Source: Candidatus Thorarchaeota archaeon (lineage in GTDB: Archaea > Asgardarchaeota > Thorarchaeia > Thorarchaeales > Thorarchaeaceae). From it: 14,601 nucleotides of DNA. The notes below the pieces were generated by a model, which saw only the letters and a list, made by a program, of their open reading frames with translations, ran no database searches and was not told the DNA's origin. The stretch lies in NCBI GenBank assembly GCA_046758445.1, contig JBHIAE010000064.1, positions 1 through 14,601 on the forward strand, given 5' to 3'. The number at the start of each line of letters is the position of its first letter. Positions within the stretch are counted from its first letter, which is position 1. This document shows positions 1 through 14,601 of the stretch, one piece after another. A program made the translations under genes and the position numbers.

Positions 1-1064
1 GGTGCCATTTCAGCAACAATCGAATAGCTTGATGACTGTATGACCACGTGCGATGCACCAATGAGAAATGAAGAGAGAAGAGCCAATGCAAGCGTCGGGG
101 TGACTATGAGCCATGAAATCCCGAGGAGTGACAAGACAACTCCAACCATCATGACCTTTCTATCACTGGCCTTGGCAACCACTGATCCAACCAAGAGCCC
201 TGCAATCATGGATGCAATACTGCCCACATTACTGTAGAGTGCAATCTCTTCGCCCGTCGCATTGAATCCTGTCGGGTCCGCGATAAAGAGAGCCGTGATT
301 ATCGCAATGGAGTTTCTCCCGAAGTTGATGAATATCAACGCTGCTATGAAGATCAAGTATCCAACACGCAGCGCGGAGGGAAGTGCGCTGAGTGGATAGT
401 CCTCTTGAGTTGCGGCCTCGTCAGATTCCTGCGTTCCTTCCTCCTTCTTGAGACGGATTGAGAAGTAGACGATGATGCTCGAGAAGATCATGACTACAGC
501 CGCGATGTTGAATATGATTCCATTGGCAAACCCTGCACCATTATCATAGAGGAACCCACCAAGATAGGCTCCACCTAGCCCCCCAAAGCCTCCAATGATT
601 GAGAACTGCCCCATGATCCTCTTTCTCTCATCGATCTCGGTCAATACTGAGATTAATGCTGACCAACCGACATTGGACATACTCCAGAAGACTTCGATGC
701 CTCCAAGGCTGAGTATTATCACATAACCAGCAATGACTAGCTGATTCATTCCAAGAAAGAACATGTATCCAAAAACCATGAAGAAATGACCAATGCCTGC
801 AAGGAATTCTCCTATGACTACGAACTCCCTGGGCTTTCGGTACTTGTCAAGTAGATTGCCCCAGAGGAATGATTGAGTAAGGGCATTGGCTATCATCCCG
901 ACTGTAGCCATCAGAGTCACTTCGGTAGTTGAGAGGCCAAGTGACCGAAGGTATATTGACAAGAAGGCGTACACTATAGATCTTCGAAAATCGATGAGAA
1001 TCTGGAATGTAGATAGCCCAGTGAATTCTCGAGCTTTGAGCCTTGAGTAGTTAAGTATCTTCAA
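1..1064 (-). CDS. MFS transporter (3' end outside the window)
   Basis: Not in the ORF track; translated by hand at both ends and one internal stretch, all in one frame. TTG at 1064-1062, with an upstream in-frame TAG at 1076-1074. Reads MKILNYSRLKAREFTGLSTFQILIDFRRSIVYAFLSIYLRSLGLSTTEVTLMATVGMIANALTQSFLWGNLLDKYRKPR... The WGNLLDKYRKPR loop resembles MFS motif A. Many hydrophobic helices follow, ending ...GASHVVIQSSSYSIVAEMAP at the window edge. Confidence 0.85.
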   Translation of the reverse strand, partial: MKILNYSRLKAREFTGLSTFQILIDFRRSIVYAFLSIYLRSLGLSTTEVTLMATVGMIANALTQSFLWGNLLDKYRKPREFVVIGEFLAGIGHFFMVFGYMFFLGMNQLVIAGYVIILSLGGIEVFWSMSNVGWSALISVLTEIDERKRIMGQFSIIGGFGGLGGAYLGGFLYDNGAGFANGIIFNIAAVVMIFSSIIVYFSIRLKKEEGTQESDEAATQEDYPLSALPSALRVGYLIFIAALIFINFGRNSIAIITALFIADPTGFNATGEEIALYSNVGSIASMIAGLLVGSVVAKASDRKVMMVGVVLSLLGISWLIVTPTLALALLSSFLIGASHVVIQSSSYSIVAEMA

Positions 1065-1282
1065 ACTAGATTTCTAGGACTAATCTCCATCTTAAATACC
1101 ATTTTCTACCAACTCAGCTTTCTGGGAGCGTCTTTGCATCATCCAGCATTTGGAGATACCAGTATCTATAACACATTTGCTGCACTGTTGGAGGTATAAG
1201 AAATGAAAAGGTAAGACATCAAAGTGGATTTGAACAGAAATAAAGGCATGTCTTTCTTGCATATCACAAGGCATATTCCCCA

Positions 1283-2507
1283 ATGAGGTACACCAAAATG
1301 GCATCTCTAAGAAGCTACAAACGAGTTGTTGGAGAAAGAAAGTTGGAACAACTTCAGAGCAAAGCGGAACAATTATCCAAGTATCATATCCTTTCAATTA
1401 GCTCCACTTATCAAGGGGGAGGCGTTGCTGAGATGCTTAATAGTATGGCTCCGATGTTTCATGATATGGGAATAGATTTCGGCTGGAGAATTCTACATGG
1501 GACCCCTGACTTCTTTAGAATTACAAAGGAATTCCACAATGCACTCCAAGGTGATAATATCAATCTTTCAAAAAGAATGAAGAAAACATACATCGAAACC
1601 AATGAACGCTTCTCAAAATTCACACATGTAGATAATCACGACCTCGTTATAGTTAATGATCCCCAACCACTGGCATTGATTGATTTCTTTGAAAAAAGAC
1701 AGCCATGGATTCTTAGAGTTCACATAGACATATCTCATCCAGAGCCAAGACTCTGGATGTATCTAAAAGGGTTCATCGAGAAATATACACAATTGATTAT
1801 CTCAATGAATGAATATAGGAAATCCTTACGTATTCCACAAAGTGTTATTCATCCCGGAATAGACCCCTTAAGTGAGAAGAATAAGAAACTCTCTAAGAAT
1901 ACAATTGATAGACATCTTACTAAGAATGGAATCAATATAGAAAGACCGATAGTATCTCAAATATCAAGGTTTGATAAATGGAAAGACCCGATTGGAGTCA
2001 TAAGAGTCTTTGAAAAGGTTAGACAAAAAGCGAATTGTCAATTAGCTTTGATTGGATCTTTTGCAAGAGATGATCCAGAGGGGCATCAAATCTACGAAAA
2101 GGTTAGTAAAAGAGTTGAAAAAAAGCAAATACGAGAAAGACATCACAATACTCCTGAACGGAACTGATATCTTGGTAAATAGCCTACAATCCGCTTCCTC
2201 AGTCGTAATTCAAAAATCTCAAAGGGAAGGCTTCGGATTAGTAGTTTCAGAAGCACTATGGAAAGGTACACCTGTTGTTGCTTCAAATGTGGGAGGAATT
2301 CCATTACAAGTAATTGATGGGGTGAATGGCTTCTTACAAGAACCAAAAGATGTCAGGGGTTTTGCTGAGAGCATAATTAAACTTTTAGAAAATGAGAAAC
2401 TGAGGAGGGATATGGGCGAAACTGGAAGAGAACATGTGAAGCATAATTTCCTGATTACTAGAGTAATGATGGAATGGCTTGATGTATTTGAGAAATACTT
2501 GGATTAG
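1283..2507 (+). pseudogene. treT: Trehalose synthase TreT-type glycosyltransferase (GT4), frameshifted at the A7 run 2118-2124 (true pseudogene or sequencing error)
   Basis: ORF 1283-2167 has TreT motifs STYQGGGVAEML, FFRITKEFHNALQG, NDPQP, RVHID, IDPLSEKN, SRFDKWKDP and DDPEG. ORF 2052-2507 continues with QKSQREGFGLVVSEALWKGTPVVASNVGGIP (GT4 E-x7-E). Removing one A joins them as ...VEKSKYEKD..., giving 407 aa, a normal TreT length. Confidence 0.88.
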
Positions 2508-2560
2508 AAATTCTTCAGCGTATACAAGGCCAACGATCTGCAACATGTGATACCGTGTAC

Positions 2561-2567
2561 TTATAAT
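2561..2567 (+). promoter_or_regulatory. Putative archaeal TATA box for the TPS/TPP gene
   Basis: TTATAAT lies about 25-30 nt upstream of the in-frame TTG at 2590 and about 45-50 nt upstream of ATG 2611. Confidence 0.4.
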
Positions 2568-2610
2568 GCGTCGCCAACAGTAGATGTGATTGGAGATTAC
2601 AGAGAAACAT

Positions 2611-4800
2611 ATGAATAGATTATTGATCGTTTCAAATAGACTACCCATTAAGGTAAAGAAAGAGAACCAACTGGAATTTGAAGAAAGTGTAGGTGGACTA
2701 GCGACAGGTTTGAGTTCATTCTACAAGTCACATGGAGGTCTTTGGATAGGATGGCCTGGTGTTACACTTGAACAAATCGATGGACAGGAAAACGAAGTCA
2801 ACACCAGATTGAGAGTCGAGAAATGTTATCCAGTATATATCTCCCGGCAAGATATCGAAGACTATTATGAAGGATTCTGTAATAAGACAATTTGGCCTCT
2901 TTTCCATTACTTCCCCCAATATACCGAATATGGTGAGATTACGTGGAATTCTTACAAGAAGGTGAATCAGATCTTTTTTGATGCGATTATGGAGGAAATT
3001 GAGCCAGGTGATACCATTTGGGTGCACGATTATCACCTTATGCTATTACCAGAACTCATAAGAAAAGAAATTCCAGATGCGACAATAGGCTTCTTCCTTC
3101 ACATTCCATTCCCCTCTTTTGAAGTGTTCCGACTCCTTCCTTGGCGAAAGGAAATTCTAAATGGACTTCTGGGAGCAGATCTCATAGGATTTCATGCATT
3201 CGACTATGTCCGACATTTTAATTCGAGTATTGGTCGACTGTTAGGTTTAGAATCCGCTCTTGGTCAGATCAAGGTTGGTAATCGTGTAGTAAAAGCAGAT
3301 ACTTTTCCTATGGGTATAGACTATGAAGGATTTGCAGGCTCAGTACATGAGTCAGCGGTACAAGACGAAATCAAGAGAATCCGGGAGGAGGTAGGCAAGC
3401 GGAAGATCCTCTTTTCCATTGACAGATTGGACTACACTAAAGGCATATTGGAAAGATTGGAATCGTTTGACCTGTTTTTAGACAAGAATCCAGAATACAA
3501 AGAGAAGGTTGTTTTGATTCTTGCAGCAGTCCCTTCTCGAACAGGAGTAGATCAGTATGAACTGCTGAAAAAGCAGTTGGATGAGTCAGTCGGCAGAATT
3601 AACGGAAAACACGGAACGATTGGGTGGGTGCCCGTTTGGTATCAATACAGATTCTTGCCATTTCATCTTCTCGTTGCCTTATACAATGTCGCAGATATTG
3701 CACTAGTAACTCCTCTGAGAGATGGAATGAACTTAATAGCTAAAGAATTCGTTGCCACTAAGCTAGATAGCAAGGGTGTTCTAATTCTCAGCGAAATGGC
3801 GGGAGCCTCAAGAGAAATGGGAGAAGCCCTCATAATAAATCCTAATGATACCGAGATGGTTGCAAACGCCATTAAGGAAGCCTTGACAATGCCTGAAAAG
3901 CTGCAAATAGAAAACACTAGGGCGATGCAAAGAAAGCTAAGAAGACACAATGTTGTCCGTTGGGCTGAGAATTTTGTTGAGGAATTGAAATCGATTAAGA
4001 GAGTTCAGCAAGACCTCCATGCGGCAAAACTAACAGATGAAAGGAAAATGAGGCTAATTACCGACTATCTTGAAAGCAATAAACGATTGATACTATTGGA
4101 TTATGATGGGACACTCAGTCCCCTCGTAGAAAAACCCTCAGCAGCAAAACCTGATGTTGAACTCCTAACGATGCTGAAGAGTATTGATGAGGATGCAAGA
4201 AACACAATCGTCCTAGTAAGCGGGCGGGATAAGGGAATATTGGACGAGTGGTTTAGTAGTCTGAATTTGGATATGATTGCTGAGCATGGTGCATGGCAAA
4301 AAGAGAAGGATAGAAAGTGGCAGATGGTGGAACCTTTGAGAAGCGATTGGAAGGAAGAAATACGGCCACTTCTTGAAGAGTATGAAGATAGAACTCCTGG
4401 CGCTTTAATAGAAGAAAAGGACTATTCTCTCGTTTGGCACTATCGGCGGGTGGATCCAGAATTGGCGATAATCAGGGCGGGAGAGTTGAAATCTGCACTT
4501 TTGGATTATCTTTCCAATCTAGATGTATCTGTTCTAGAGGGGAATAAGGTTATTGAGATTAAGAATGTTGGCTTAAACAAGGGTAGGACAGCATCAAACT
4601 GGATTTCCAAGGATGATTGGGACTTTATTTTGGCAATGGGAGATGATATCACTGATGAGGACGTTTTTGCAGTCTTACCTGAATCAGGATATTCTATTAA
4701 GGTGGGAATAGGACCTTCTCATGCGAGATTCTTTGTGGACTCTTTTGAGGAAGTGAAGTCAATATTGAAAGAATTGGGAGAGGTAGAAAGTGACAAATGA
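2611..4800 (+). CDS. tpsp: Bifunctional trehalose-6-phosphate synthase/phosphatase (GT20 OtsA domain + HAD OtsB domain)
   Basis: GT20 motifs: LIVSNRLP, GGLATGL, WIGWPG, WPLFHY, WVHDYHL, FFLHIPFP, DRLDYTKG, DGMNLIAKE, LSEMAGA. C-terminal HAD motifs: LDYDGTL, VSGR, AEHG, GDDITDED. Alternative start is TTG 2590. Confidence 0.96.
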   Translation: MNRLLIVSNRLPIKVKKENQLEFEESVGGLATGLSSFYKSHGGLWIGWPGVTLEQIDGQENEVNTRLRVEKCYPVYISRQDIEDYYEGFCNKTIWPLFHYFPQYTEYGEITWNSYKKVNQIFFDAIMEEIEPGDTIWVHDYHLMLLPELIRKEIPDATIGFFLHIPFPSFEVFRLLPWRKEILNGLLGADLIGFHAFDYVRHFNSSIGRLLGLESALGQIKVGNRVVKADTFPMGIDYEGFAGSVHESAVQDEIKRIREEVGKRKILFSIDRLDYTKGILERLESFDLFLDKNPEYKEKVVLILAAVPSRTGVDQYELLKKQLDESVGRINGKHGTIGWVPVWYQYRFLPFHLLVALYNVADIALVTPLRDGMNLIAKEFVATKLDSKGVLILSEMAGASREMGEALIINPNDTEMVANAIKEALTMPEKLQIENTRAMQRKLRRHNVVRWAENFVEELKSIKRVQQDLHAAKLTDERKMRLITDYLESNKRLILLDYDGTLSPLVEKPSAAKPDVELLTMLKSIDEDARNTIVLVSGRDKGILDEWFSSLNLDMIAEHGAWQKEKDRKWQMVEPLRSDWKEEIRPLLEEYEDRTPGALIEEKDYSLVWHYRRVDPELAIIRAGELKSALLDYLSNLDVSVLEGNKVIEIKNVGLNKGRTASNWISKDDWDFILAMGDDITDEDVFAVLPESGYSIKVGIGPSHARFFVDSFEEVKSILKELGEVESDK

Positions 4801-4968
4801 CTCCCGTCATCCAATCATTTCAAATCTATTTCAGACATGATTGTGTTCACAGAACAGCTCCAGAAATCTAACATGACACTCTCTGTGATCTTCGCTTGGT
4901 CTTCTTGGAATTCCTCACCAGCCGCGAATACATCGATTCTCTTTCAAGATTCTCTACCCTCGCAACCG

Positions 4969-5300
4969 ATGGTAATCGAATTGCTTGCAACACTTTTCGG
5001 TGTCCACATTACAATAGCACTCGGTGAAGCATTCCAAGCTAATAGAGAGGTAGCGTGAGCAAAGTGGGTAGAGAACGAGCTTGTTGAAGAACTTGAAGAG
5101 ATTCTAGAACAGGCCCAGCGAGAAAGCATAGATGAGCTCCACTCACCAAAATGGACCGCGATCAAAGTGACAGGCATTACAGATAGGATTGAGCCCAGAC
5201 TACAGAGAGTCTTGGCTGATGCCTTTGCGATCTTCGACATCTACAACTACGAGGTCCGTCGATACAAGGAGCATAGCTTCACTGCAAGTCCAGGAGTACC
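4969..5300 (+). pseudogene. Remnant of a membrane-anchored hypothetical protein gene with an in-frame TGA (5056-5058) and probable 3' truncation
   Basis: ORFs 4837-5058 and 5167-5427 share a frame. Read-through gives MVIELLATLFGVHITIALGEAFQANREVA*AKWVENELVEELEEILEQAQRESIDELHSPKWTAIKVTGITDRIEPRLQRVLADAFAIFDIYNYEVRRYKEH, a hydrophobic helix followed by amphipathic helices. Beyond about 5300 it is antisense to the EutA-like gene. Confidence 0.45.
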
Positions 5301-5996
5301 TCGATTGAACAGACTCTTCTCGCGCTTGAGTGTGAGTCGTGAGAAGATAAGATGTGATGTAGACGAGCCAATGTCAATGCCTACACTCAAGACCTTCATG
5401 TACTCTACATTGTCAGCTGGAAGATGACCCATTAGCAGCTCTACTGGTTCAAATGGTTCGTCTTCTTCTACTTCCTCGACTTGAGGTTCTTCTTGTTTCC
5501 TGGAGATTCTGATCTTCACATCCTGTCCACAGTGTTCAGGAAGTTCGACCTCGTCTTCTGAATTGAGAATCTGCATCTTCTTCTCATGGGGCACATCGAC
5601 TTCCTCCCCACAGACGGTGCAAAAGAAAGTGATGTCAATCGACTGGTCACTACCAGGCATCACTGGTCCATCTCTTCGAGGAGCTGGTTTCTTCTTATGT
5701 CGGTGTGCACCTTCCCATGGAGCCTTGAACATCCATTGGACCATTGTCAGAAGAGTATCGAATTCTTCACTTGGCTGCAGGACTGAGGCCAGTGCGGGCT
5801 TGAAGGAAACAATGAGTCTACGAATTCCTTCTACTTCTGATGCGGCTTCATGTTCATGTTGCTGTAATAATGCAGTGTAATTCTGTTCAAACAACTTGCC
5901 CAAGGCATCAGCATCTTCGCTGAAGTGCTCCCCAAAGAAATCCTTGACAACTCTAAGGACATAATACTTCATGTTCTCTGCTTTGTCGACCGTCAT
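5247..5996 (-). pseudogene. eutA: Zn-ribbon-containing protein with the start of an EutA-like (ASKHA/actin-fold ATPase) domain, 3'-truncated
   Basis: Helical N-terminus, then CTVC...EHCG putative Zn ribbon and an acidic linker, then VLSVGIDIGSSTSHLIFSRLTL. The last closely matches the EutA N-terminus as recalled (LLSVGIDIGTTTTQVIFSRLEL). Similarity stops about 10 residues later and the ORF ends, whereas EutA normally continues for more than 400 aa. Confidence 0.65.
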
Positions 5997-6058
5997 GTCT
6001 GATCATCCTTGAAACAGTAGAGGTTCTAAGCAACTGGGATTCCCATATAAGACATATG

Positions 6059-6090
6059 TTTATATATTAAATAATACGATATTGTATTAT
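6059..6090 (+). promoter_or_regulatory. TATA box plus 20-bp palindromic operator candidate overlapping the start codon
   Basis: TTTATATATT at 6059-6068. ATAATACGATATTGTATTAT at 6071-6090 matches its reverse complement at 18/20 positions. ATG is at 6089. Confidence 0.6.
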
Positions 6091-6454
6091 GCCCAGGAAG
6101 AGACGAACTCTGGCTGAGCGTGCAGAATCGATCTTTGAGTTCATCAATGCTCAGGGAGAGCCATTTCCAAAATCAAAGCTCCAAGCTATTGGACTCAATC
6201 CGTCAACGGCCGAGAATTGGGTCCGACTGATTGAGTACATTCAGAGTCAACCGCGAATCAGGATTACTCGTTTGGGGTCAACAACATACATCGAACAGCT
6301 AGAGAATCGGTACCTAAGCATGCTCAGAAAGAGAATCCTTGATTCGAAGCTCTCATTGAAAGAACGGTCGAAGACTATGGATGACTATATAGCGGCACTC
6401 ATTACACTTGAACGAGCAGAGATGGCCCGAATCAAGAAGATACCGTCGAGATGA
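6089..6454 (+). CDS. Hypothetical protein, probable winged-helix DNA-binding protein
   Basis: 121 aa, basic N-terminus (MPRKRRT). Predicted helix-helix-turn-helix (FPKSKLQAIGLNPSTAENWVRLIEYIQ), then a beta-hairpin wing (RIRITRLGSTTYIE) and C-terminal helices. Fold is inferred from pattern only. Confidence 0.7.
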   Translation: MPRKRRTLAERAESIFEFINAQGEPFPKSKLQAIGLNPSTAENWVRLIEYIQSQPRIRITRLGSTTYIEQLENRYLSMLRKRILDSKLSLKERSKTMDDYIAALITLERAEMARIKKIPSR

Positions 6455-6459
6455 TACCT

Positions 6460-6885
6460 CTACTTATCCAACACAAGTATCCTAGGCAGCTTCAAGAGTT
6501 TCCCCAAGTTTCTGCCAGAGGTACCTCCTCTGTAGCGGAGCCTTCTCTTCCCGTACCTGTTTCTTGTCGTCATCATCTTGAGGGTAGAGTATTTCCCGTT
6601 TGTGAAGTACATCAAGTCCTCTGGATCAGCGATGAGCTCCAAGTCGTATGCATCCAGCTTTCCCTTGTTGAGTTTGTATTCGCCGCCGCCAGAAACAAGG
6701 TTCACCCATAGGACGAATTCCTCTTCTGCGTGGAGGCCTATGTTGATTCTGGCTTGGAATTCGTTGAGAGTCTTCGTGTTCCTGGGATTCTTTCGTTTAT
6801 CGGCAATGACATCTTTGACCACAGCCCTGAATGTCAGGAACAGTGTTTCTTGTGCTGCTTCATCCATTGCGTTCCACCCAGTCAT
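6460..6885 (-). CDS. SCP2 sterol/lipid-binding domain-like protein (divergent)
   Basis: 141 aa with SCP2-like topology: N-terminal helix, strands, GKLDAYDLELIADPEDLMYFTNGKYSTLKMM, then RLRYRG...LGKLLKL. Starts 2 nt after the stop of the upstream SCP2 gene. Confidence 0.65.
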   Translation of the reverse strand: MTGWNAMDEAAQETLFLTFRAVVKDVIADKRKNPRNTKTLNEFQARINIGLHAEEEFVLWVNLVSGGGEYKLNKGKLDAYDLELIADPEDLMYFTNGKYSTLKMMTTRNRYGKRRLRYRGGTSGRNLGKLLKLPRILVLDK

Positions 6886-6887
6886 GC

Positions 6888-7337
6888 TTAGTAGAGTTCG
6901 GTATCAATCAGTGTGGCAGTTCGTACCAACTCTTTGGCGGCATCAGTGGCCTTCAGCACCTTTGCCATGTCCCCCTCTATCTTTGCTTGGCCGCTGAGGA
7001 GAGCACGAATCGGGTCCAATTCACCATTTAAGATCTGCACCCATGTGTCGTAGCCTGCTTCATAGGTGTATTCCACTGCGAGCTTGTCCTCGCTGCTTGC
7101 GCTCTCTCCAGGCCTCACAACCTCGTATTCATTCGCCGATGAAACAGGCTTGACACCTGTGCACTTTCCGTGGCTTAGGCCGACAAAGGCCATAGCATCG
7201 CCATCCAAATTGCCGGCGGCCTTGACAATGAAGACGAAATCTCCGGTCCACCAAGATGCGGCCTTGGCATAGGCCTCGTTTGCGTTGAGTGCTTCCTTAT
7301 AGACATCTAACCATTCTTCTGACATGAACTTCGGCAT
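6888..7337 (-). CDS. SCP2 sterol/lipid-binding domain protein
   Basis: Likely start is ATG 7337, preceded by SD-like GAGGAG at 7352-7347; 149 aa. FMSEEWLDVYKEALNANEAYAKAASWWTGDF and YDTWVQILNGELDPIRALLSGQAKIEGDMAKVLK are typical SCP2 signatures. The ORF-track extension to 7505 overlaps moaD. Confidence 0.88.
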   Translation of the reverse strand: MPKFMSEEWLDVYKEALNANEAYAKAASWWTGDFVFIVKAAGNLDGDAMAFVGLSHGKCTGVKPVSSANEYEVVRPGESASSEDKLAVEYTYEAGYDTWVQILNGELDPIRALLSGQAKIEGDMAKVLKATDAAKELVRTATLIDTELY

Positions 7338-7467
7338 TGTAGTCAGCTCCTCAAATGTCGCCCACTTTAAACCGTTCGGTTCTTGTTGCTGCAACAAGAG
7401 AGACTGTGTGATAAATAGAGCGTCGTGAGAAGTGAGTGTCATTAGAGGGCCTTCATTGCTGAACCCT

Positions 7468-7749
7468 TCAACCACCGGCAACCACCGGAAAGAACGATAT
7501 CTCATCCCCCGATGACAGACCAGTTTCTATCCCTGAGAGGAACCTTATCTCCCTGCCGTTCTTGAGGATAGTAATGTCGGACTTGGTCTCTTGGTTCTTG
7601 TCAAGGAGGGCTTCTCGAATCTTCGAATCCAGGAGTAGCTTTTTGAGAAGCTCGGAGATGGTGGCGCCTTCTTCTAGGTCCAGCTCCATTGTGCCCTTCT
7701 TGCCGACGAGGTCACGCAGATGCGCGTAGAACCTCACCCTTACCTTCAT
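7468..7749 (-). CDS. moaD: MoaD/ThiS/SAMP-family ubiquitin-like sulfur carrier
   Basis: 93 aa beta-grasp pattern MKVRVRFYAHLRDLVG...ILKNGREI...LSSGDEISFFPVVAGG with C-terminal di-glycine. SD-like GGAGGAG at 7761-7755. Adjacent to a pterin-cofactor AOR. Confidence 0.93.
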   Translation of the reverse strand: MKVRVRFYAHLRDLVGKKGTMELDLEEGATISELLKKLLLDSKIREALLDKNQETKSDITILKNGREIRFLSGIETGLSSGDEISFFPVVAGG

Positions 7750-7781
7750 ACGAGCTCCTCCCGTGTTTGGGCGAACATCAG

Positions 7782-7793
7782 GCTTATAAAAGC
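7782..7793. promoter_or_regulatory. Candidate shared TATA element between the divergent moaD and AOR-ligase genes
   Basis: GCTTATAAAAGC reads TTATAAAA on + and TTTTATAA on -. It is the most AT-rich box in the 84-bp intergenic region, 35-50 nt from each start. Confidence 0.45.
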
Positions 7794-7833
7794 GTATAGA
7801 ACCGCTTACTGAGCAATCGAGGTCTCTCTCACT

Positions 7834-10800
7834 ATGTTTGGTTACATGGGCAAGATCCTGCGAGTCAGTCTGACAACTTCCACCATAACCGAGGAGTTTC
7901 CGGATGAGGAAACATTGAGGAAGTACATCGGAGGCGCGGGATTAGGGACCAAAATCCTTCTTGATGAAACCGAGAAAGGAATTGACCCCCTAGGACCTGA
8001 GAACAGACTCATCTTCATGACTGGTCCTTTAACTGGAACACACTCACCCAGCACTGGACGATACAGCGTGGTCACGAAGTCCCCGCTCACAAATGGCTGG
8101 GGTCAGGCGAACTCAGCGGGCTTCTGGGGAAGGGATTTCAAGCGCTCAGGTTTTGATGGTGTGATATTCGAGGGGAAAGCACCAAAACCTGTCTACCTGC
8201 TCACTGAAGATGGAAAGGCAGAACTGAGGGATGCAGCGGAGATATGGGGAAGGAACACATCTGAGACCACACGGATCTTGAAGGAGAAGCATGGACCGAA
8301 ATTCAATGTCGCATGCATTGGCATTGGTGGAGAGAATCTAGTAAAGTACGCTGCTATCATGAATGATTGCGATGAAGAAAACTGGGGTCGAGCGGCGGGT
8401 CGGTGCGGCGTTGGCGCAGTCATGGGGTCAAAGAACCTGAAGGCCATAGCATCGAAGGGGACCATGACAATTCCGGTTGCTGATATCGAGGCGTATAGGA
8501 AAGAAGCAAAGCAGAGGTTTGACTGGGTAAACCAAAGCATCTTGAAGATGACCCTCGAGGTCTACGGTACAGCCACAATGGTCGACCTTGTCAATGTGAA
8601 GGGTGGCATCCCGACGAGGAATTGGCAAACCGGGGTCTTCGAGAATACAGATATGATCAATGGAACTGCCATAAATGAGAACATCCTCGTGAGACGAAAG
8701 CCTTGCTTTGCGTGTCCCATCCACTGTGGTAGGATTGCTGAGATCAAGTCTGGTCCGTTCAAGAGCAAGGGAGAAGGACCTGAGTACGAAACCATAAGCT
8801 CGTTTGGGACAATGTGCGGCGTGGACAACCTAGAAGCGATTACGCTGGCTCACTTCCTATGTAATGAATATGGAATAGACACAATCTCTGCAGGTAGCAC
8901 CGTAGCGTTTGCAATGGAGTGTTTCCAGAGAGGCATCTTGAAGGATGAGGACGTCCACGGAATGGACTTCTCTTGGGGAAATGCACAACTTATAGTCGAC
9001 ATTGTCCACAAGATCGGAAGACGCGAAGGCATCGGCGACATGCTGGCCGAGGGTACAATGAGGATGGCCGAAAGACTCGGTGGGGGTTCTGAGAGATTCG
9101 CAATGCATGTCAAAGGGCTAGAGCTTCCTGGTTATGATAGCCGCGCGGCGAAGGTGACAGGGCTAGCCTATGCTGTCGCCAACCGTGGTGGAGACCACAT
9201 AACTGCATACATCGAAGGACCTGCTTTCCTAGCCATGCCATTCATGATTGTTGAAGATGCGGACATTGGGGACCCCTTGAAGGAGATCCCTGAGACGTCG
9301 CTGATCGTCAAGAACTTCGAAGACGCTCTTGGCTTCTTTGATTCTATCGGCGGCTGCAAGTTCATGGGCATGGTACTCACCGCCGAGGATTGGGCCAAGT
9401 TGATCTCCACACTAATGGGTTACGACTTCACTGCTGAGGACTTTCGTAAGACGGGCGAAACAATATACAATCTCGAACGTGCCTACATTCTGAGGGAAGG
9501 ATTCACTGGGGCAGACGACACACTGCCACCCCGACTGCTGGAAGACCCATTGCCAGAAGGTCCCGCTCAGGGCCATGTGGTGAACCTGGACGTCTTGCTG
9601 GATGCCTACTACGAGTACCGCGGCTGGGACAGTCAAGGCAGGCCGACGCCAGAGAAGCTCCAAGAGCTCGGCTTGGAATGGCTGACCGAAATGATACCTG
9701 CTGATGCAGAGGTAAGCAAAGAGGCAGCCAAGATTGAAACCCAGGACAGCCCAGTAATCATCGGCAGGGTATCGACAACCGCGGCATCCCAAGAAGTGAT
9801 CGAGGGCAAGCCTTGGCTCAATAGCTACCAGATAGGTCCCTTCAAGCTTGAGCACTCCATGGCTCCATATCCTGAGATGAACGTCTACAAGTTCCTAGAG
9901 GATACTGCAGGAGAATTGCCTGACAACGTAGCGTGCCAGTACGCTGATGAGGAAATGACCTACCCGGAACTGAAGCTAAAGGTAGACAAGTTGGCATCAG
10001 CCTTGGTGGCACTCGGAGTAAAGAAGGGTGACACTGTCGCGACGGTTCTTCCGTCATGCCCTGAGTTCATCATCGCGGACTATGCAGCCATGAAGGTTGG
10101 GGCTATACATGTGCCCCTGAGCATTCTGCATAAGGCAGATGACCTGCTCTATGAGCTAAGGGAGAGTCGCGCCGAGATTGTCATTTGCTCCTATAGACGA
10201 GTCGAACGGGTCAACCAAGTGAAACATGAAACGAGCGTGAAGTCCGTCATCTATGCACCAACGAAGCTATTTCCGGACTACGAGTACCCTGAGATGGAGA
10301 AGATTGAGGATGAGAACTACCTCCTCATGGACGACCTGATTGACAGATATGAACCGCACACGGAAACTGTCGACATCAATCCGAAAGAAGACATTGCATT
10401 GTTGCCATTCACTGGAGGTACCACGGGTGTTCCAAAGGGGACTATGTTGACGCATCACAATCTAACTACTGTCGTAATCCAGTCTATCCAGTGGATGATG
10501 GACCCACTGAAAGAGGGAATCATAGGCAAGGGCGCTGGCGTGATATGCGTGCCCATCTTCCACACTTACGGCCATTGGGCTGTCCACGCGTGCATCTCGT
10601 GGGGGTTGAAGATGTACTTGATGGACTCTCGCGATATCCAGAAGATCGTGGATGTGATAAACGAACATCGTCCCTTCGCGGTGTTTGCGGTGCCAGCCCA
10701 TTATACCATGTTCAGGAGGATGGACCTCATCAAGGGGCAGATATTCTACTACTCTGGTGCGGCAGCCCTTCCAGCAGACCTTGCAGAGGAGTTCGAAGAG

Positions 10801-11472
10801 AAGTCGGGAGTGCCCATGGGCGAGGGCTACGGTGCTACGGAAACATCTGGTATCGTTTCAATCAACATATCGGCCTTGTCAAAGGTAACGGGCTTCATGG
10901 CCGAGGTGAAGAGGGGCGTTGGGATTCCTATCCCAGACACTGAGATCAAGATTGTAGATCCTGACACGGGCAAGGAGCTTCCACTTGGCAGGCGAGGCGA
11001 ATTGTGGGTTCGTGGTCCGCAGATCATGAGGGGATATTGGCCGACGCCAGGGAGTGGTCTGAGGGAAGGCGGTTGGCTGCCCATGGAAGACATCGTGGAA
11101 ATGGACAGCGATGGCTACTTCAAAGTCGTGGACCGAATCAAGGACATGATCAATGTTTCCGGCAACAAGGTCTACAGCAGGGTCGTTGATGACATTCTTC
11201 ACGAGCACGAGGCGGTCGACCTTGCGGGAATGATAGGCATTCCCGACCCGGAGAGACCTGGAAGTGAGAGAGTCAAGGCCTTCATTCAGTTGAAGCCCGA
11301 GTACAGAGGAAAGGTATCCGAGGAAGAGATAATCGAATTCCTGAAAGACAAGGTGAAACCCTACGCGATACCAAAGTGGGTTGAATTCAGGGATGAGTTG
11401 CCCTTGACGATTGTAATGAAGCTCTTCAAGAAGAAGCTCAGGGAAGAAGAGCTTACGAAACTGAACCAATGA
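7834..11472 (+). CDS. aor: Fusion: tungsten-type aldehyde:ferredoxin oxidoreductase (aa 1 to ~616) + long-chain acyl-CoA synthetase/AMP-forming ligase (aa ~659-1212)
   Basis: AOR motifs: GYMGKILRVSL, KSPLT, GRAAGRCGVGAVMGSKNLKAI, CFACPIHC plus GGCKF ([4Fe-4S] ligands), GPEYET, GIDTIS, HVKGLELPGYDSR, NRGGDH, YYEYRGWD..GRPTPEKLQELGL. Ligase motifs: KPWLNSY, FTGGTTGVPKG, GEGYGATET, GELWVRGPQIMRGYW, DRIKDMINVSG, LPLTIVMK. One stop-free frame with a ~42-aa linker. Confidence 0.95.
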   Translation: MFGYMGKILRVSLTTSTITEEFPDEETLRKYIGGAGLGTKILLDETEKGIDPLGPENRLIFMTGPLTGTHSPSTGRYSVVTKSPLTNGWGQANSAGFWGRDFKRSGFDGVIFEGKAPKPVYLLTEDGKAELRDAAEIWGRNTSETTRILKEKHGPKFNVACIGIGGENLVKYAAIMNDCDEENWGRAAGRCGVGAVMGSKNLKAIASKGTMTIPVADIEAYRKEAKQRFDWVNQSILKMTLEVYGTATMVDLVNVKGGIPTRNWQTGVFENTDMINGTAINENILVRRKPCFACPIHCGRIAEIKSGPFKSKGEGPEYETISSFGTMCGVDNLEAITLAHFLCNEYGIDTISAGSTVAFAMECFQRGILKDEDVHGMDFSWGNAQLIVDIVHKIGRREGIGDMLAEGTMRMAERLGGGSERFAMHVKGLELPGYDSRAAKVTGLAYAVANRGGDHITAYIEGPAFLAMPFMIVEDADIGDPLKEIPETSLIVKNFEDALGFFDSIGGCKFMGMVLTAEDWAKLISTLMGYDFTAEDFRKTGETIYNLERAYILREGFTGADDTLPPRLLEDPLPEGPAQGHVVNLDVLLDAYYEYRGWDSQGRPTPEKLQELGLEWLTEMIPADAEVSKEAAKIETQDSPVIIGRVSTTAASQEVIEGKPWLNSYQIGPFKLEHSMAPYPEMNVYKFLEDTAGELPDNVACQYADEEMTYPELKLKVDKLASALVALGVKKGDTVATVLPSCPEFIIADYAAMKVGAIHVPLSILHKADDLLYELRESRAEIVICSYRRVERVNQVKHETSVKSVIYAPTKLFPDYEYPEMEKIEDENYLLMDDLIDRYEPHTETVDINPKEDIALLPFTGGTTGVPKGTMLTHHNLTTVVIQSIQWMMDPLKEGIIGKGAGVICVPIFHTYGHWAVHACISWGLKMYLMDSRDIQKIVDVINEHRPFAVFAVPAHYTMFRRMDLIKGQIFYYSGAAALPADLAEEFEEKSGVPMGEGYGATETSGIVSINISALSKVTGFMAEVKRGVGIPIPDTEIKIVDPDTGKELPLGRRGELWVRGPQIMRGYWPTPGSGLREGGWLPMEDIVEMDSDGYFKVVDRIKDMINVSGNKVYSRVVDDILHEHEAVDLAGMIGIPDPERPGSERVKAFIQLKPEYRGKVSEEEIIEFLKDKVKPYAIPKWVEFRDELPLTIVMKLFKKKLREEELTKLNQ

Positions 11473-11508
11473 GATTCTGTTCTCAGAGTCATTCATCTGT
11501 AGTGGGAA

Positions 11509-12492
11509 TCAACTTCTCTCCTCAACTACTCGCCTCAGTCTTTCATATGCATCAGGACCACTCGAGAATGGACATGCTTTGATACACACTGAACAGCCAT
11601 AGTATTGCGCGAAGTACTCGAAACAAGTCTGCTGAGTGATGTTTGTGATTCGTCCCGTGTCATGGATCACTGCATCTTCAAGTATGGCTTGGGGTGGACA
11701 CTGCTTGATACACAGTCCGCAGATCTTGCAGTATTCGTCAATCCATTCATGAACATTTGAATCGGCAAAGGGCAAGTTCCGAATGTTTGTATAGACAACT
11801 GCCAGACGAAGTCTGGGTCCAAACTCAGGGGTGATTAGGAGACCGTGCTTCCCAACCCAACCAATGCCGGCTTTCTGAGCTAGAGGAGGAAACAGAACCA
11901 GACCACCGAGAGGATGATCAGCCTGAGCTGCATAGCCGTGCTCTCTGAGGAAGTCAGCAATCTTGTTTGCTGCTTTTCCTAGATCATCATAGGTCCCAAA
12001 CACCATGCTCAACGTTGCCTGGCTTGGAGCCCTGTCGATCTTCTCTTTACTCATCTCCATTCCAAGAATGATTGCGTTATCGTAGAGCACTCCATATTCT
12101 TGGAAGATGAGGTCCAGAGGCAGCTTCACGAATTCGAATGGGCCAACTCCAAGGCTCAGGGAGTAATCCTTGAGTTGTTCCAAAAACTCCTCAGTGGCCT
12201 CCGAAATCGGATCTGATGGATTCTCTTGGATTGAATCAACTGAAAGGTGGATGTTCTTTATGATTGAGAGAAGACGTCTAATGGGCAGCAAGTGCCTCAT
12301 CTGAATATCATCTCGCTCATGAAGTAAGTTCAACATCTCCAGTGGTATCTCAAACCTTGTCGGAGATTGTGATATTGGTTGAAGGATCCCAGGCATGTCA
12401 TTCAGCGATCTCTGCTTAGCCACCATTCTTCTGACTCTAGGTATGCCAAATCTCATGACGAAAGACTTCGTGATCGTGTGTCTAATCCTCAT
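11509..12492 (-). CDS. Reductive dehalogenase/epoxyqueuosine reductase (QueG)-like cobalamin-dependent 2x[4Fe-4S] protein
   Basis: LAQKAGIGWVGKHGLLITPEFGPRLRLAVVYTN (cobalamin-binding core of the RdhA/QueG superfamily), CKICGLCIKQCPPQAI and CFEYFAQYYGCSVCIKACPF. Confidence 0.85.
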   Translation of the reverse strand: MRIRHTITKSFVMRFGIPRVRRMVAKQRSLNDMPGILQPISQSPTRFEIPLEMLNLLHERDDIQMRHLLPIRRLLSIIKNIHLSVDSIQENPSDPISEATEEFLEQLKDYSLSLGVGPFEFVKLPLDLIFQEYGVLYDNAIILGMEMSKEKIDRAPSQATLSMVFGTYDDLGKAANKIADFLREHGYAAQADHPLGGLVLFPPLAQKAGIGWVGKHGLLITPEFGPRLRLAVVYTNIRNLPFADSNVHEWIDEYCKICGLCIKQCPPQAILEDAVIHDTGRITNITQQTCFEYFAQYYGCSVCIKACPFSSGPDAYERLRRVVEERS

Positions 12493-12519
12493 TTCTGGTC
12501 TAGCAACTTCCGAAGGTGA

Positions 12520-12526
12520 TTATAAA
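12520..12526 (-). promoter_or_regulatory. TATA box for the RdhA-like gene (probably leaderless)
   Basis: TTTATAA on the minus strand, 28-34 nt upstream of ATG 12492, within the small inverted repeat TGAT-TATAA-ATCA. Confidence 0.55.
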
Positions 12527-12885
12527 TCATGGCGGACAACACCTGATACAACAACAGGAGTGACATCTACATATGCGAGGTAAGATACGAGGTAATGTAT
12601 GAAACCGGGGAGTTTGATCCTATAGTTCTCCTATTGATCGGGCTTCTGAGATTCATATGGCTGGGTGCAGGATGGAGAATGTTCAAGATTTCGAGGTTTG
12701 AGTCAAACGGGGAGTAGGCATCGCCATCTTCTACAGACCTTCCGATGAGATGACTGTACAGGTGCTTGGGAGAATCAGAGAGGGAGTAACCGAGCTCTTC
12801 TTTGACGATATCCTTCAACACCCATTGACATCATGATAGTGTGTGGATGGACTGGCTGGCCTAATCATGGAGAACACTAATATCA

Positions 12886-13200
12886 ATGGACTACCACGAT
12901 TTGTTGATTGACATGCAGAAGAAATCGAAAAGGCTTGAGAAACCGCACAAGGACTCTGTCAGTGCCATTGTTCTAATTGAAGTCATACCACACGAACATC
13001 TGAACGTCATGAAGTCAGCCAAAAAGGACCTTGAGGATATTCCTGGAGTGAAAGAAGCGTGGGGCATCTTTGGCCCCTGGGATCTAGCAGCGATTGTTGA
13101 AGCTTCGTCCTTTGAAGAACTAAAGGACAAAGTGATTGATGAGATTCGAGCCGTTCCAGGTGTTGGGAAGACTGAAACGCTACCCAGATTTCCTCTATAG
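12886..13200 (+). CDS. Stand-alone Lrp/AsnC ligand-binding (RAM) domain protein
   Basis: VSAIVLIEV...LEDIPGVKEAWGIFGPWDLAAIVEASSFEELKDKVIDEIRAVPGVGKTETL; no HTH. Start is uncertain (12886 or ATG 12913). Confidence 0.88.
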   Translation: MDYHDLLIDMQKKSKRLEKPHKDSVSAIVLIEVIPHEHLNVMKSAKKDLEDIPGVKEAWGIFGPWDLAAIVEASSFEELKDKVIDEIRAVPGVGKTETLPRFPL

Positions 13201-13283
13201 TGTCTATCTAAGAGCTACCCCAGAACCACTCATTACTCTCCCAATCCCCACCGGCAAGCGAATGCAAGCGGAGAGTATCTCAT

Positions 13284-13760
13284 TCAGGAGGTTCCACTCG
13301 GATCAATCAGAAGCCACTCTGAAGGCTCATTCTGTACAAACCACTTATCGACATACTCAAGGATGATCTTCTGTGGTGGGAAAGGGACTTTGGAGATTGC
13401 GTCCTCAAAGGACGTCCAAATGTATTCGCTGTGCTCGAAGTTCAACTGCACTTCTTGGTCAGGTCCCACGAAGGCCACAAAGACTGGGGCAATCCAGTAG
13501 TCATCTTTGTTCGCCAGATAGAATTGTTCGGAGGTATCAGCAGAATAGAGCCTCTCTGGGACTAATCCAGTCTCCTCTCTCGTTTCCCTAAGGGCGGCTT
13601 CCCATGCCTTTTCGCCCTCTTCAATTCTCCCCGAAACATAGCACCACTCTCCCTCATAGGAAACCTTTCTCCGAAGTAGTAGTGTTTGAGAGGTGTCCTT
13701 GGACTTCCTTATCACAATACACACGATTCCTTTGCATTCTACGGGTATCCCCTGTCCCAA
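13284..13760 (-). CDS. Nudix hydrolase (NudB/dATP pyrophosphohydrolase-like)
   Basis: Nudix box GRIEEGEKAWEAALRETREETGL, plus LNFEHSEYIW. TTG 13760 is preferred because GGAGGAG lies 6 nt upstream; the ORF track starts at TTG 13775. Confidence 0.92.
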   Translation of the reverse strand: MGQGIPVECKGIVCIVIRKSKDTSQTLLLRRKVSYEGEWCYVSGRIEEGEKAWEAALRETREETGLVPERLYSADTSEQFYLANKDDYWIAPVFVAFVGPDQEVQLNFEHSEYIWTSFEDAISKVPFPPQKIILEYVDKWFVQNEPSEWLLIDPSGTS

Positions 13761-14044
13761 AGTAGGCTCCTCCAACTGTCATCGCCTCGGGTCCAATTGG
13801 TCTTAAGGCATTCGGGAGCATCACTGATCGAGTGTCTTGGGAGAGGACATACTCCTTTCTTGCCCGCACACCTAATATTCATTAGAAACTGACCTCAGTG
13901 AACTAGGGAACATTCACTGGCAAAGTCCGAGTCTTGGGCCAGATTCGTTCGGGGAGTACTGGTGCCCATCAGAATTGTGCATATGGAAGTACTCAAATTG
14001 GAAAGCTGGCCGAAAGCTACAATTCAGTGAGGAGTTTCAGAGCA

Positions 14045-14601
14045 TTGTCATCCAAGTTCCATCGTGGTACAATATTCAAGTCGGTGTTGATCGGGGACGG
14101 GGCTGTAGGAAAGACCAGTATCCGTCGCAGATACCTAGGTGACGAGTTCATAGAAGGGCATCTCGCTACCATCGGAGTAGACTTCGCTCAGAAATGGGTG
14201 AGCTATGAAGGCGCGACTGTCAGGTTCGTGTGTTGGGATTTGTCGGGCCAACCTAGCTTCAAACAAGTCCGTAAGCATTACTATCAAGGCTCTGACGGAA
14301 TCATTCTCGTGTACTCTGTCACGGACCGGGAATCATTTGACAACGCCTCAAAATGGCTTGTGGAGGCCTACAAGAATATGGAGAAGCTCCCTCCAACTGT
14401 GATTGTTGCAAACAAGATTGACCTACGTCCCACCACACCTGAAGGTCAACTGGTCAGCACCGAGGAGGGCAATGAGTTCGTGGAATACTTCATTGACAAA
14501 CTTGGTGTCCCCGCCATCTTTCGAGAAACCAGCGCAAAGACAGGGGAGAACATTGAGGACACGTTCCAAGAGCTTCTTAGGATGATGAGTGAGGTCGAAG
14601 T
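14045..14601 (+). CDS. Rab-like small GTPase (Ras superfamily), stop codon beyond the window
   Basis: Not in the ORF track; translated by hand. MSSKFHRGTIFKSVLIGDGAVGKTS (G1), ATIGVDF (G2/RabF1), WDLSGQ (G3), YYQGS and LVYSVT (RabF4/F5-like), ANKIDL (G4), ETSAKTGENI (G5). TTG at 14045 with GAGGAG at 14029-14034; in-frame GTG 14027 is an alternative start. Confidence 0.93.
   Translation, partial: MSSKFHRGTIFKSVLIGDGAVGKTSIRRRYLGDEFIEGHLATIGVDFAQKWVSYEGATVRFVCWDLSGQPSFKQVRKHYYQGSDGIILVYSVTDRESFDNASKWLVEAYKNMEKLPPTVIVANKIDLRPTTPEGQLVSTEEGNEFVEYFIDKLGVPAIFRETSAKTGENIEDTFQELLRMMSEVE

Follow-up and report, generated by a model that had tools for sequence, protein, structure and literature searches.

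A 14,601-nucleotide stretch of DNA from a Candidatus Thorarchaeota archaeon (GCA_046758445.1, contig JBHIAE010000064.1, positions 1 to 14,601; hereafter the window) carries a gene whose single product combines two catalysts that are intact by their motifs, an oxidoreductase of the aldehyde ferredoxin oxidoreductase (AOR) type and a two-step acyl-CoA ligase of the adenylate-forming ANL family. An earlier note on this DNA had described an in-frame fusion of a complete AOR with a complete ANL ligase, which our analysis bore out. The gene is a single 1212-codon open reading frame (ORF), and its product contains four Pfam domains, all far above their gathering scores: AFOR_N (residues 6-210, E 8.5e-77), AFOR_C (237-614, 1.2e-137), AMP-binding (689-1069, 6.3e-84) and AMP-binding_C (1118-1193, 3.6e-11). 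The start at position 7834 is supported because the orthologues and Pyrococcus furiosus AOR begin alike, sharing the N-terminus M-(F/Y)-G-Y-M-G-K with the fusion. Full-length homologues (62-93% identity) were found in Thor- and Hodarchaeota. With modest confidence, we consider the most likely function to be the oxidation of a hydrophobic aldehyde to the acid, with reduction of ferredoxin, followed by conversion of the acid to acyl-CoA; the direction and the substrate are read from context.

The AOR half scored 257.8 bits against AFOR_N and 459.6 bits against AFOR_C (Pfam cut-offs 29.8 and 27). Among solved structures it was closest to P. furiosus AOR, 1AOR (phmmer 552.5 bits, E 1.3e-164; Foldseek template-modelling (TM) score 0.96), followed by the electron-bifurcating tungsten aldehyde oxidoreductase 9MQX (9mqx_D; 532 bits, TM 0.96), the C. 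autoethanogenum AOR 9G7J (506 bits, TM 0.96), Aromatoleum AorB 8C0Z (430 bits, TM 0.93), FOR 1B25 (376 bits, TM 0.92), WOR5 6X1O/6X6U (288 bits, TM 0.83) and BamB 4Z3W (224 bits, TM 0.79). On these bit scores and TM-scores, together with the conserved residues, the AOR half is assigned to the AOR sensu stricto type and not to the FOR, WOR5 or BamB type. The four Fe-S cysteines and the EYET and RGGDH motifs, which the earlier note had reported as retained, are all in place (Table 1), the cluster motif reading KPCFACPIHC. The residues aligned to P. furiosus Y312, E313 and H448 and the four cysteines are invariant in the fused orthologues and in the split orthologues, in which the two halves are separate genes. 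From the literature on 1AOR, Y318/E319 presumably lie near the tungsten, and NEYGIDTISAG and RGGDH are presumably pterin/active-site motifs. The pterin-binding DxxGL(C/D) motifs are present as DTISAG and DSIGGC, and Asn (N344) stands in place of the first Asp of motif 1 in the fusion, as in most aligned relatives. A tungstopterin cofactor and aldehyde oxidation are predicted from family membership.

The likeness to 1AOR, 9G7J and 9MQX extends over the three-domain fold (41-44% identity), the CxxCxxxC...C cluster ligands, the Tyr-Glu pair and His near the tungsten and the pterin-binding motifs; no Fe-S partner subunit is encoded nearby, which is also the case for P. furiosus AOR. Unlike these AORs, the fusion carries a C-terminal linker and a whole ligase, and its orthogroup has its own surface patch (residues 230-256 and 465-477), predicted to bind the ligase, and is accompanied by SCP2 proteins. 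We take the dimer-bridging metal ligands of P. furiosus AOR, E332 and H383, to correspond to L338 and V388 in the fusion. The window's genome contains 11 other AOR-family loci. Beyond the AOR-ANL fusions, the long proteins most similar to the AOR half (38-48% identity) come from Methanomethylicaceae, Nezhaarchaeales and Hodarchaeales; they are AORs of ~830 aa with a C-terminal domain of the OMP-decarboxylase/3-hexulose-6-phosphate-synthase family; that fusion could link formaldehyde release by the reverse ribulose monophosphate pathway to formaldehyde oxidation.

In the ANL half, the core motifs (A3, A5, the A7 Asp, the A8 hinge and the A10 Lys) are all kept, in fused and split forms alike. 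The nearest structure in the Protein Data Bank (PDB) was Archaeoglobus fulgidus FadD-1 (3G7S, E 9e-56), and matches to feruloyl-, coumarate-, malonyl- and benzoate-CoA ligases followed. The best NCBIfam model was the long-chain-fatty-acid--CoA ligase PRK06187 (358 bits against a cut-off of 476); the other models were also far below, and no NCBIfam equivalog cut-off was reached, so family membership cannot give the substrate. With FadD-1 and the class-I ligases (4-coumarate, benzoate, feruloyl), the ANL half shares the AMP-binding plus AMP-binding_C fold, the A3 P-loop, A5 YGxTE, the A7 Asp, the DRxKD hinge and the A10 Lys; it differs from them in overall sequence (~26% identity in Foldseek alignments), in its A7 and A10 variants (MGD, which is MED in this copy, and LPLTxxMKL) and in a conserved N-terminal extension, (D/G)KPWLxSYxxGPFKL. 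The variants and the extension are common to fused forms, split forms and 41-49%-identical relatives. Since split and more distant relatives have them, the A7/A10 variants are not a product of the fusion, and we rejected an altered chemistry linked to the fusion: these are subfamily traits, and the catalytic residues are kept. The ANL part of the full-length structural model superposed best on the thioester-forming conformers 5BSR, 4G37 and 4EAT (root-mean-square deviation ~4.7 A, against ~10.7 A for adenylate-forming conformers), which is a property of the model only.

The two modules are separated by a disordered linker with a predicted local distance difference test (pLDDT) score of ~28, against mostly >90 for the AOR module, in AlphaFold2. 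It occupies the position of the 6-25-codon intergenic spacer of the split forms. The earlier note had placed it nearly right (about 9682-9807, against 9697-9804 here) but had made it too long (~42 residues; it has 36). No carrier (PCP) or NAD(P)H reductase domain was found by Pfam, and this linker is the sole unassigned stretch of the protein.

Recurrence and origin of the fusion

In a search of 5.8 billion proteins, the same four domains were found in ~34 clusters of 1204-1226 aa (77-86% identity), whose named members were all Candidatus Thorarchaeota metagenome-assembled genomes (MAGs), and in four further fused clusters (59-64% identity), one of which is named Hodarchaeota. This makes ~38 fused clusters altogether, only from Thor- and Hodarchaeota; the sole name given to these proteins in public databases is 'aldehyde ferredoxin oxidoreductase C-terminal domain-containing protein'. 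Among 400 genomes of the phylum, an uninterrupted full-length copy was present in at least 16 species-level genomes of the window's family (81-93% identity), and several more genomes had contig-truncated copies spanning the junction. Because the gene is uninterrupted in at least 16 other species-level genomes, the fusion is neither chance nor an assembly error. The window's genome is a MAG in 113 contigs, in which assembly or sequencing might have lost a stop codon or introduced a frameshift, but the recurrence of the same architecture in these genomes and in ~38 clusters, from independent studies and assemblers, leaves such an artefact virtually no chance. One Thorarchaeota MAG (G328) has two full-length fused copies, on contigs C40 and C142, each ~82-83% identical to the query, which are either true paralogues or two co-binned strains.

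When longer proteins were searched with the ANL half, AOR domains occurred only in Thor- and Hodarchaeota proteins; the other long matches were alpha/beta-hydrolase-, TPP-enzyme-, acyl-CoA-dehydrogenase- and NRPS-type fusions. AOR-ANL fusions from elsewhere were also absent from the top 150 matches of an exhaustive search of representatives, a weak negative, as the fused family itself was not listed there either and single-domain representatives may stand in for fused forms.

Relatives are not all encoded as two separate genes, which the earlier note had named as grounds for giving up the fusion: many are fused, and many others are adjacent pairs. The split orthologues, like the conserved neighbourhood described below, lie beyond what that note saw. 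They are adjacent and co-directional with the AOR first (AOR 66-75% and ANL 59-77% identical to the fusion) and occur in the Lokiarchaeota/Promethearchaeota family, in most Heimdallarchaeota/Hodarchaeales genomes and, within the window's own family, in one genus. The split AOR ends in GLEW(V/A)IDxIY and a stop codon, a spacer of 6-25 codons follows, and the ANL gene starts just before (D/E)KPWLKSY. In fused genes the stop is replaced by a linker of 35-50 aa in which Ser, Thr, Glu, Lys and Gln abound and which is variable in length and sequence; no obvious similarity was seen between Thorarchaeota and Hodarchaeota linkers. The two adjacent genes in many relatives show how the fusion arose: it is derived from an adjacent AOR-ANL pair by loss of the AOR stop, the spacer having become the linker.

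Apparent in-frame TGA, TAG or TAA codons in many of the matches, and in AOR paralogues of the window's genome, were considered as recoding (selenocysteine, pyrrolysine or read-through). This was rejected, as they are ordinary gene ends: in some cases the AOR gene stops and, a short spacer later, the ANL gene begins in the same frame, and in others the stop is terminal.

Trees of the AOR halves and, separately, of the ANL halves placed the orthogroup clearly apart from the paralogues of the window's genome. Both trees contained a single fused Thorarchaeota clade (99-100% SH-aLRT) and a second fused clade nested among split Heimdallarchaeota/Hodarchaeales sequences (94-99%). The minimum number of state changes on the trees was two, and the approximately unbiased test rejected a single fused clade (delta lnL 382, p 2.4e-5); these were quick trees, and the tested group was set by architecture beforehand, yet after the first tree had been seen. 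These results indicate that the fusion arose twice independently, in Thorarchaeota and in a Hodarchaeales lineage. Two independent fusions also constitute Rosetta-stone evidence for an interaction of the split proteins. An apparent third fusion in a Lokiarchaeota genome (G173, 'open frame 1276') was discarded, since its translation comprises two genes.

Predicted docking of the two modules

An AlphaFold2 model of residues 5-1204, built from an 88-row alignment, had a mean pLDDT of 90 and a predicted TM-score (pTM) of 0.82, despite the disordered linker. By our own estimate, two well-folded modules of such size that are mutually unplaced would give a pTM of ~0.55-0.6, so the pTM alone points to a confident relative placement. 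For the inter-domain interface, whose prediction the earlier note had suggested, AOR domains 2-3 (residues 211-620) and the ANL part (residues 655-1204) were submitted to complex prediction together with three controls. The complex scored 0.82, 0.83 and 0.82, and the best of the three controls scored 0.00. Among solved complexes, 58 of 80 attain this mark, and among mismatched pairs 2 of 110; as the input was our own alignment, these counts are approximate. The runs agreed in at least 90% of contacts, with a partner pLDDT of 88. Searches of the PDB by sequence and by fold gave no chain that matches both halves, which makes it unlikely that the docking score reflects a memorised structure.

The predicted contacts on the AOR side were residues 230-256, 276, 465-477 and 514, and those on the ANL side were residues 668-669, 891-901 (the A3-A4 loop), 945-948, 966-971, 992-993 (just before A5) and 1015-1021 (after A5). 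Structure prediction thus supports docking of AOR helices 230-256 and loop 465-477 against the surface of the ANL N-domain. The 26 AOR contact positions were 92% conserved in fused and split orthologues, compared with 85% for domains 2-3 overall, and the fused and split consensus sequences were identical at 92% of them; these positions matched the consensus of more distant AORs at 12%, against a background of 55%. On the ANL side of the interface there was no such contrast in conservation (86% against 81%). This pattern marks the AOR patch as an interaction surface dedicated to the orthogroup, probably older than the fusions. Since the interface is conserved in the split orthologues, these probably form a non-covalent AOR:ANL complex.

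The two halves might instead be merely co-expressed, with a fusion that is neutral or fixes stoichiometry, halves that work independently, intermediates that diffuse freely and an interface that is a modelling artefact. Split orthologues exist, unlinked in one genome, the linker is long and unconstrained, and structure predictors can place chains side by side. This account is unlikely in view of the score of the complex relative to its controls, the near-invariance of the AOR contact patch within the orthogroup but not in more distant AORs, the double origin of the fusion and the preservation of gene order and adjacency across three Asgard lineages.

Conserved neighbourhood and candidate function

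ORFs around 34 loci of the AOR-ANL pair were clustered, and representatives were annotated. An SCP2 protein (c1, ~150 aa) was present at 32 of the 34 loci, a second SCP2-fold protein (c3, ~136 aa) at 21 and a MoaD/SAMP-like protein at 22. The AOR-ANL pair is thus part of a conserved module that also comprises one or two SCP2-fold carriers and a MoaD-like protein. An iron alcohol dehydrogenase (Fe-ADH) and a class-III aminotransferase were found at fewer loci (8 and 6 of 34), and PPDK, HAD, DUF1512 and RuBisCO-like proteins were lineage-specific neighbours. In the window, moaD, c1 and c3 form an operon on the minus strand, divergent from the fusion gene. The c1 family profile matched the Thermus thermophilus SCP2 structures 2CX7/1WFR (E 6e-24). 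The c3 sequence showed no detectable similarity to c1 or to the PDB; its AlphaFold2 model (pLDDT 88, pTM 0.80) matched SCP2-family folds in all of the first 42 Foldseek matches listed, including human SCP2, UbiJ-SCP2, Yarrowia SCP2 and an alkylsulfatase SCP2 domain (TM 0.5-0.7). By profile and by predicted fold, respectively, c1 and c3 are members of the SCP2 lipid-carrier family, and lipid binding is predicted for both.

A more distant string, SCP2, AOR and ANL in this order, was found on a contig of GCA_900174595.1 (L044), where the ANL is 45% identical, the last two genes overlap by 7 nt and the AOR keeps part of the contact patch; the SCP2-AOR-ANL association therefore reaches past the close orthogroup. 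The flanks of this locus (1823-10648) encode a PPDK_N/PEP-utilizers protein, a molybdopterin oxidoreductase with a ferredoxin-like protein, CoA-transferase fragments and a MaoC-like dehydratase. At a Lokiarchaeota locus (L033, G277:C3, 871-9701), the genes run AOR paralogue (38% identity), SCP2, AOR, ANL, Fe-ADH and MoaD, with c3 after MoaD on the opposite strand; here a second AOR has joined the module. No gene for an Fe-S or FAD partner subunit lay near the pair. The RdhA/QueG-like Fe-S gene downstream of the fusion gene in the window was rejected as a module member, being beside the pair at only 3 of the 34 loci.

Free aldehydes are the substrates of AOR-clade enzymes, which oxidise them to acids with ferredoxin, and SCP2 proteins bind fatty acids, acyl-CoAs and isoprenoid lipids. 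Conversion of aldehyde to acid to acyl-CoA fits best because of the AOR-type active site, the complete two-step ligase and the presence of SCP2, Fe-ADH and transaminase genes nearby. A hydrophobic (fatty or isoprenoid) aldehyde would be oxidised to the acid at the tungsten centre, two electrons would leave through the [4Fe-4S] cluster to ferredoxin, and the ligase would convert the acid, ATP and CoA to acyl-CoA, AMP and PPi. The acyl-CoA would feed beta-oxidation or lipid metabolism, the SCP2 proteins would bring in the substrate, which dissolves poorly, or accept the acyl-CoA product, and docking or fusion would stop the acid from diffusing away. In some lineages the aldehyde could be supplied from alcohols by the neighbouring Fe-ADH or from amines by the class-III transaminases. 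Fatty or phytol-derived isoprenoid aldehydes as substrates in sediment are a speculation.

Several points weigh against this oxidative route. Its direction and substrate are drawn from gene context and family knowledge; the AOR reaction is reversible, the Fe-ADH neighbour suits a reductive route equally, and Fe-ADH and aminotransferase neighbours are found at a minority of loci only. The route costs ATP, cleaved to AMP and PPi, whereas a CoA-acylating aldehyde dehydrogenase makes acyl-CoA free of this cost; a compensating benefit, such as low-potential electrons or substrate range, is assumed. Channelling from the AOR substrate tunnel to the acyl pocket of the ligase is a conjecture, the complex was predicted from AOR domains 2-3 and the ANL part with our own alignment, and in one genome (G397) the two orthologues lie on separate contigs.

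Of the three functions offered by the earlier note, the oxidative route is the one that fits best, and no evidence speaks specifically for the second, ATP-assisted acid reduction. In that scheme the AOR:ANL protein, fused here and non-covalent elsewhere, would be an ATP- and ferredoxin-dependent carboxylate reductase: the ligase would make acyl-AMP or acyl-CoA, the tungstopterin centre would reduce the acyl group handed across the interface to the aldehyde, and Fe-ADH might then reduce the aldehyde to the alcohol. The AOR reaction can run both ways, and in acetogens it serves to reduce acids (PMC12727526). The acid/aldehyde couple has a very low potential and ATP activation would make its reduction feasible, and a tight, conserved AOR:ANL interface is what the hand-over of a labile activated intermediate would need; the Fe-ADH at 8 of 34 loci is neutral as to direction. 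Nevertheless, we know of no AOR-clade enzyme that accepts acyl-AMP or a thioester at tungsten, and the active-site residues are those of ordinary AORs. The protein has no PCP domain, merely the 36-residue disordered linker, and the contact is predicted on the ANL N-domain surface, which would place it away from the adenylate cleft between the N- and C-subdomains. Spending two ATP equivalents on each aldehyde would also be costly for energy-limited sediment archaea. We therefore regard carboxylate reduction as rather improbable. With carboxylic acid reductase (an A-domain, a PCP and an NADPH reductase), the fusion shares the union in one chain of an adenylating domain and a domain that interconverts acid and aldehyde. 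It lacks the carrier domain and the Rossmann reductase, its redox module is predicted to be tungstopterin-dependent and ferredoxin-using and stands N-terminally, so that the order is reversed, and its direction is likely to be oxidative. If carboxylate reduction were true, the fusion would be an anaerobic, carrier-free counterpart of carboxylic acid reductase that yields lipid aldehydes or alcohols in Asgard archaea.

A fermentative reversal, in which the ligase would run backwards, from acyl-CoA to acid with ATP formed from AMP and PPi, and AOR with ferredoxin and then Fe-ADH would reduce the acid to aldehyde and alcohol as an electron sink, is quite improbable. AMP-forming ligases can run in reverse in some syntrophs, PPDK genes lie near five Lokiarchaeota loci and a PPDK_N/PEP-utilizers gene lies at L044, and Fe-ADH is a neighbour at some loci. 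But Fe-ADH and PPDK are found at a minority of loci, with PPDK adjacency being lineage-specific synteny, reduction of an unactivated acid needs very low-potential ferredoxin, and short-chain fermentation leaves the SCP2 carriers unexplained.

The third function in the earlier note, chemistry like that of the class II benzoyl-CoA reductase subunit BamB on the acyl or aryl moiety of a ligase-made CoA thioester, did not hold up and is highly improbable. BamB, which shares the AOR-superfamily fold, demonstrates that this fold can bind a CoA ester, and here the ligase is physically attached. Among the solved AOR-family structures, however, BamB is the most distant relative (224 against 552 bits; TM 0.79 against 0.96), the catalytic Glu, His and Tyr of AOR are conserved in the fusion, and none of the 34 neighbourhoods contained BamC-I-like partner genes.

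The reactions of the favoured oxidative route are familiar from separate enzymes. In anaerobic phenylalanine catabolism in Aromatoleum, an AOR or an aldehyde dehydrogenase is followed by phenylacetate-CoA ligase, and in eukaryotes fatty and phytol alcohols are converted to aldehyde, acid and acyl-CoA with the involvement of SCP2, a lipid carrier as proposed here. The Asgard version differs in being a fixed gene pair or one protein, with a predicted interface and ferredoxin as the proposed acceptor. The earlier note knew of no characterised fusion, and we found none: in full-text searches of the literature, neither a fusion of an AOR with a ligase nor an obligate pair of the two turned up. The words 'fusion', 'fused' and 'CoA ligase' are absent from a 2025 review of enzymes that depend obligately on tungsten, and reconstructions of Asgard metabolism refer to AORs only in general terms. 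Although the two families are each well known, we found no description of an AOR and a ligase as obligate partners, either fused or in a conserved complex with SCP2-fold carriers. The analysis offers a testable function for one of the many unassigned Asgard AOR paralogues and points to catabolism of lipid or isoprenoid aldehydes in Thor-, Loki- and Heimdall/Hodarchaeota, the archaea closest to eukaryotes. For biocatalysis, the protein may be of use as a self-contained tungsten enzyme with CoA activation, possibly as an ATP-driven acid reductase.

Features and other genes of the window

Table 1. Positions of the fusion gene, its predicted parts and the neighbouring genes in the window
Feature	Positions	Strand	Residues or length	Details
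AOR-ANL fusion gene	7834-11472	+	1212 aa + stop	One open frame, no internal stop
AOR module	7834-9696	+	aa 1-621	AFOR_N + AFOR_C; ends GLEWLTEMI at the stop-codon position of split orthologues
Predicted ANL-docking patch on AOR	8521-8601	+	aa 230-256	DWVNQSILKMTLEV...DLVNVK; contact list of complex prediction
[4Fe-4S] motif	8698-8733	+	C291, C294, C298	KPCFACPIHCGR; aligned to P. furiosus AOR Cys motif
EGPEYET	8773-8793	+	aa 314-320	Y318/E319 align to P. furiosus AOR Y312/E313
NEYGIDTISAG	8863-8895	+		Alignment to P. furiosus AOR, conservation
RGGDH	9184-9198	+	aa 451-455	H455 aligns to P. furiosus H448
Predicted docking patch, second part (loop)	9226-9264	+	aa 465-477	FLAMPFMIVEDAD
Fourth cluster ligand	9340-9363	+	C508	In DSIGGCKF
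Inter-module linker	9697-9804	+	aa 622-657, 36 aa	Disordered, poorly conserved
ANL (adenylate-forming acyl-CoA ligase) module	9805-11469	+	aa 658-1212
A3	10408-10440	+		FTGGTTGVPKG
A5	10825-10842	+		GYGATE
A7	11074-11094	+		WLPMEDI with D1086
Hinge	11131-11145	+		DRIKD
A10	11398-11424	+		LPLTIVMKL with K1196
Divergent intergenic region	7750-7833		84 bp	TTATAAAA box at 7784-7791, ~45 nt upstream of the ATG; read from the sequence
MoaD/SAMP-like protein	7468-7749	-	93 aa	Pfam ThiS 3.8e-13; NCBIfam moaD_arch 67.7 bits, cut-off 49.5
SCP2 protein c1	6888-7337	-	149 aa	Pfam SCP2; start MPKFMSEEW inferred from homologues, 205-aa ORF call over-extended
c3	6460-6885	-	141 aa	Divergent SCP2 fold, by AlphaFold2 model and Foldseek
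TreT (trehalose synthase) gene	1283-2507	+		Two overlapping ORFs in different frames
TreT, first ORF	1283-2167	+		TreT_GT1 + start of Glycos_transf_1
TreT, second ORF	2052-2507	+		Rest of Glycos_transf_1
Trehalose-6-phosphate synthase/phosphatase	2590-4800	+	736 aa	Glyco_transf_20 + Trehalose_PPase, bifunctional
ORF with partial EutA match	5247-5996	-	249 aa	Last ~30 residues, E 1.1e-5
Fe-S protein, reductive dehalogenase/QueG-like	11509-12492	-	327 aa	Convergent with the fusion gene
Ras/Rab-like small GTPase	13934-14599	+	Runs off the window end	Pfam Ras 1.9e-41

The TTATAAAA box upstream of the fusion gene is a putative promoter element. The split TreT gene reflects a frameshift, a pseudogene or a sequencing error; the bifunctional trehalose-6-phosphate synthase/phosphatase gene adjoins it, and the window thus holds two trehalose routes side by side. 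The Fe-S protein scored below both family cut-offs that apply to it (81 bits against 160 for reductive dehalogenases and 63 against 200 for QueG). The match of the 249-aa ORF is to the extreme N-terminus of EutA and lies below the cut-off; a frameshift may have cut the ORF off from the rest of a longer gene, of which it would be the beginning. The Ras/Rab-like GTPase is a typical Asgard 'eukaryotic signature' protein, and a similar Arf/Ras gene lies near the fusion on a Hodarchaeota contig (L012).

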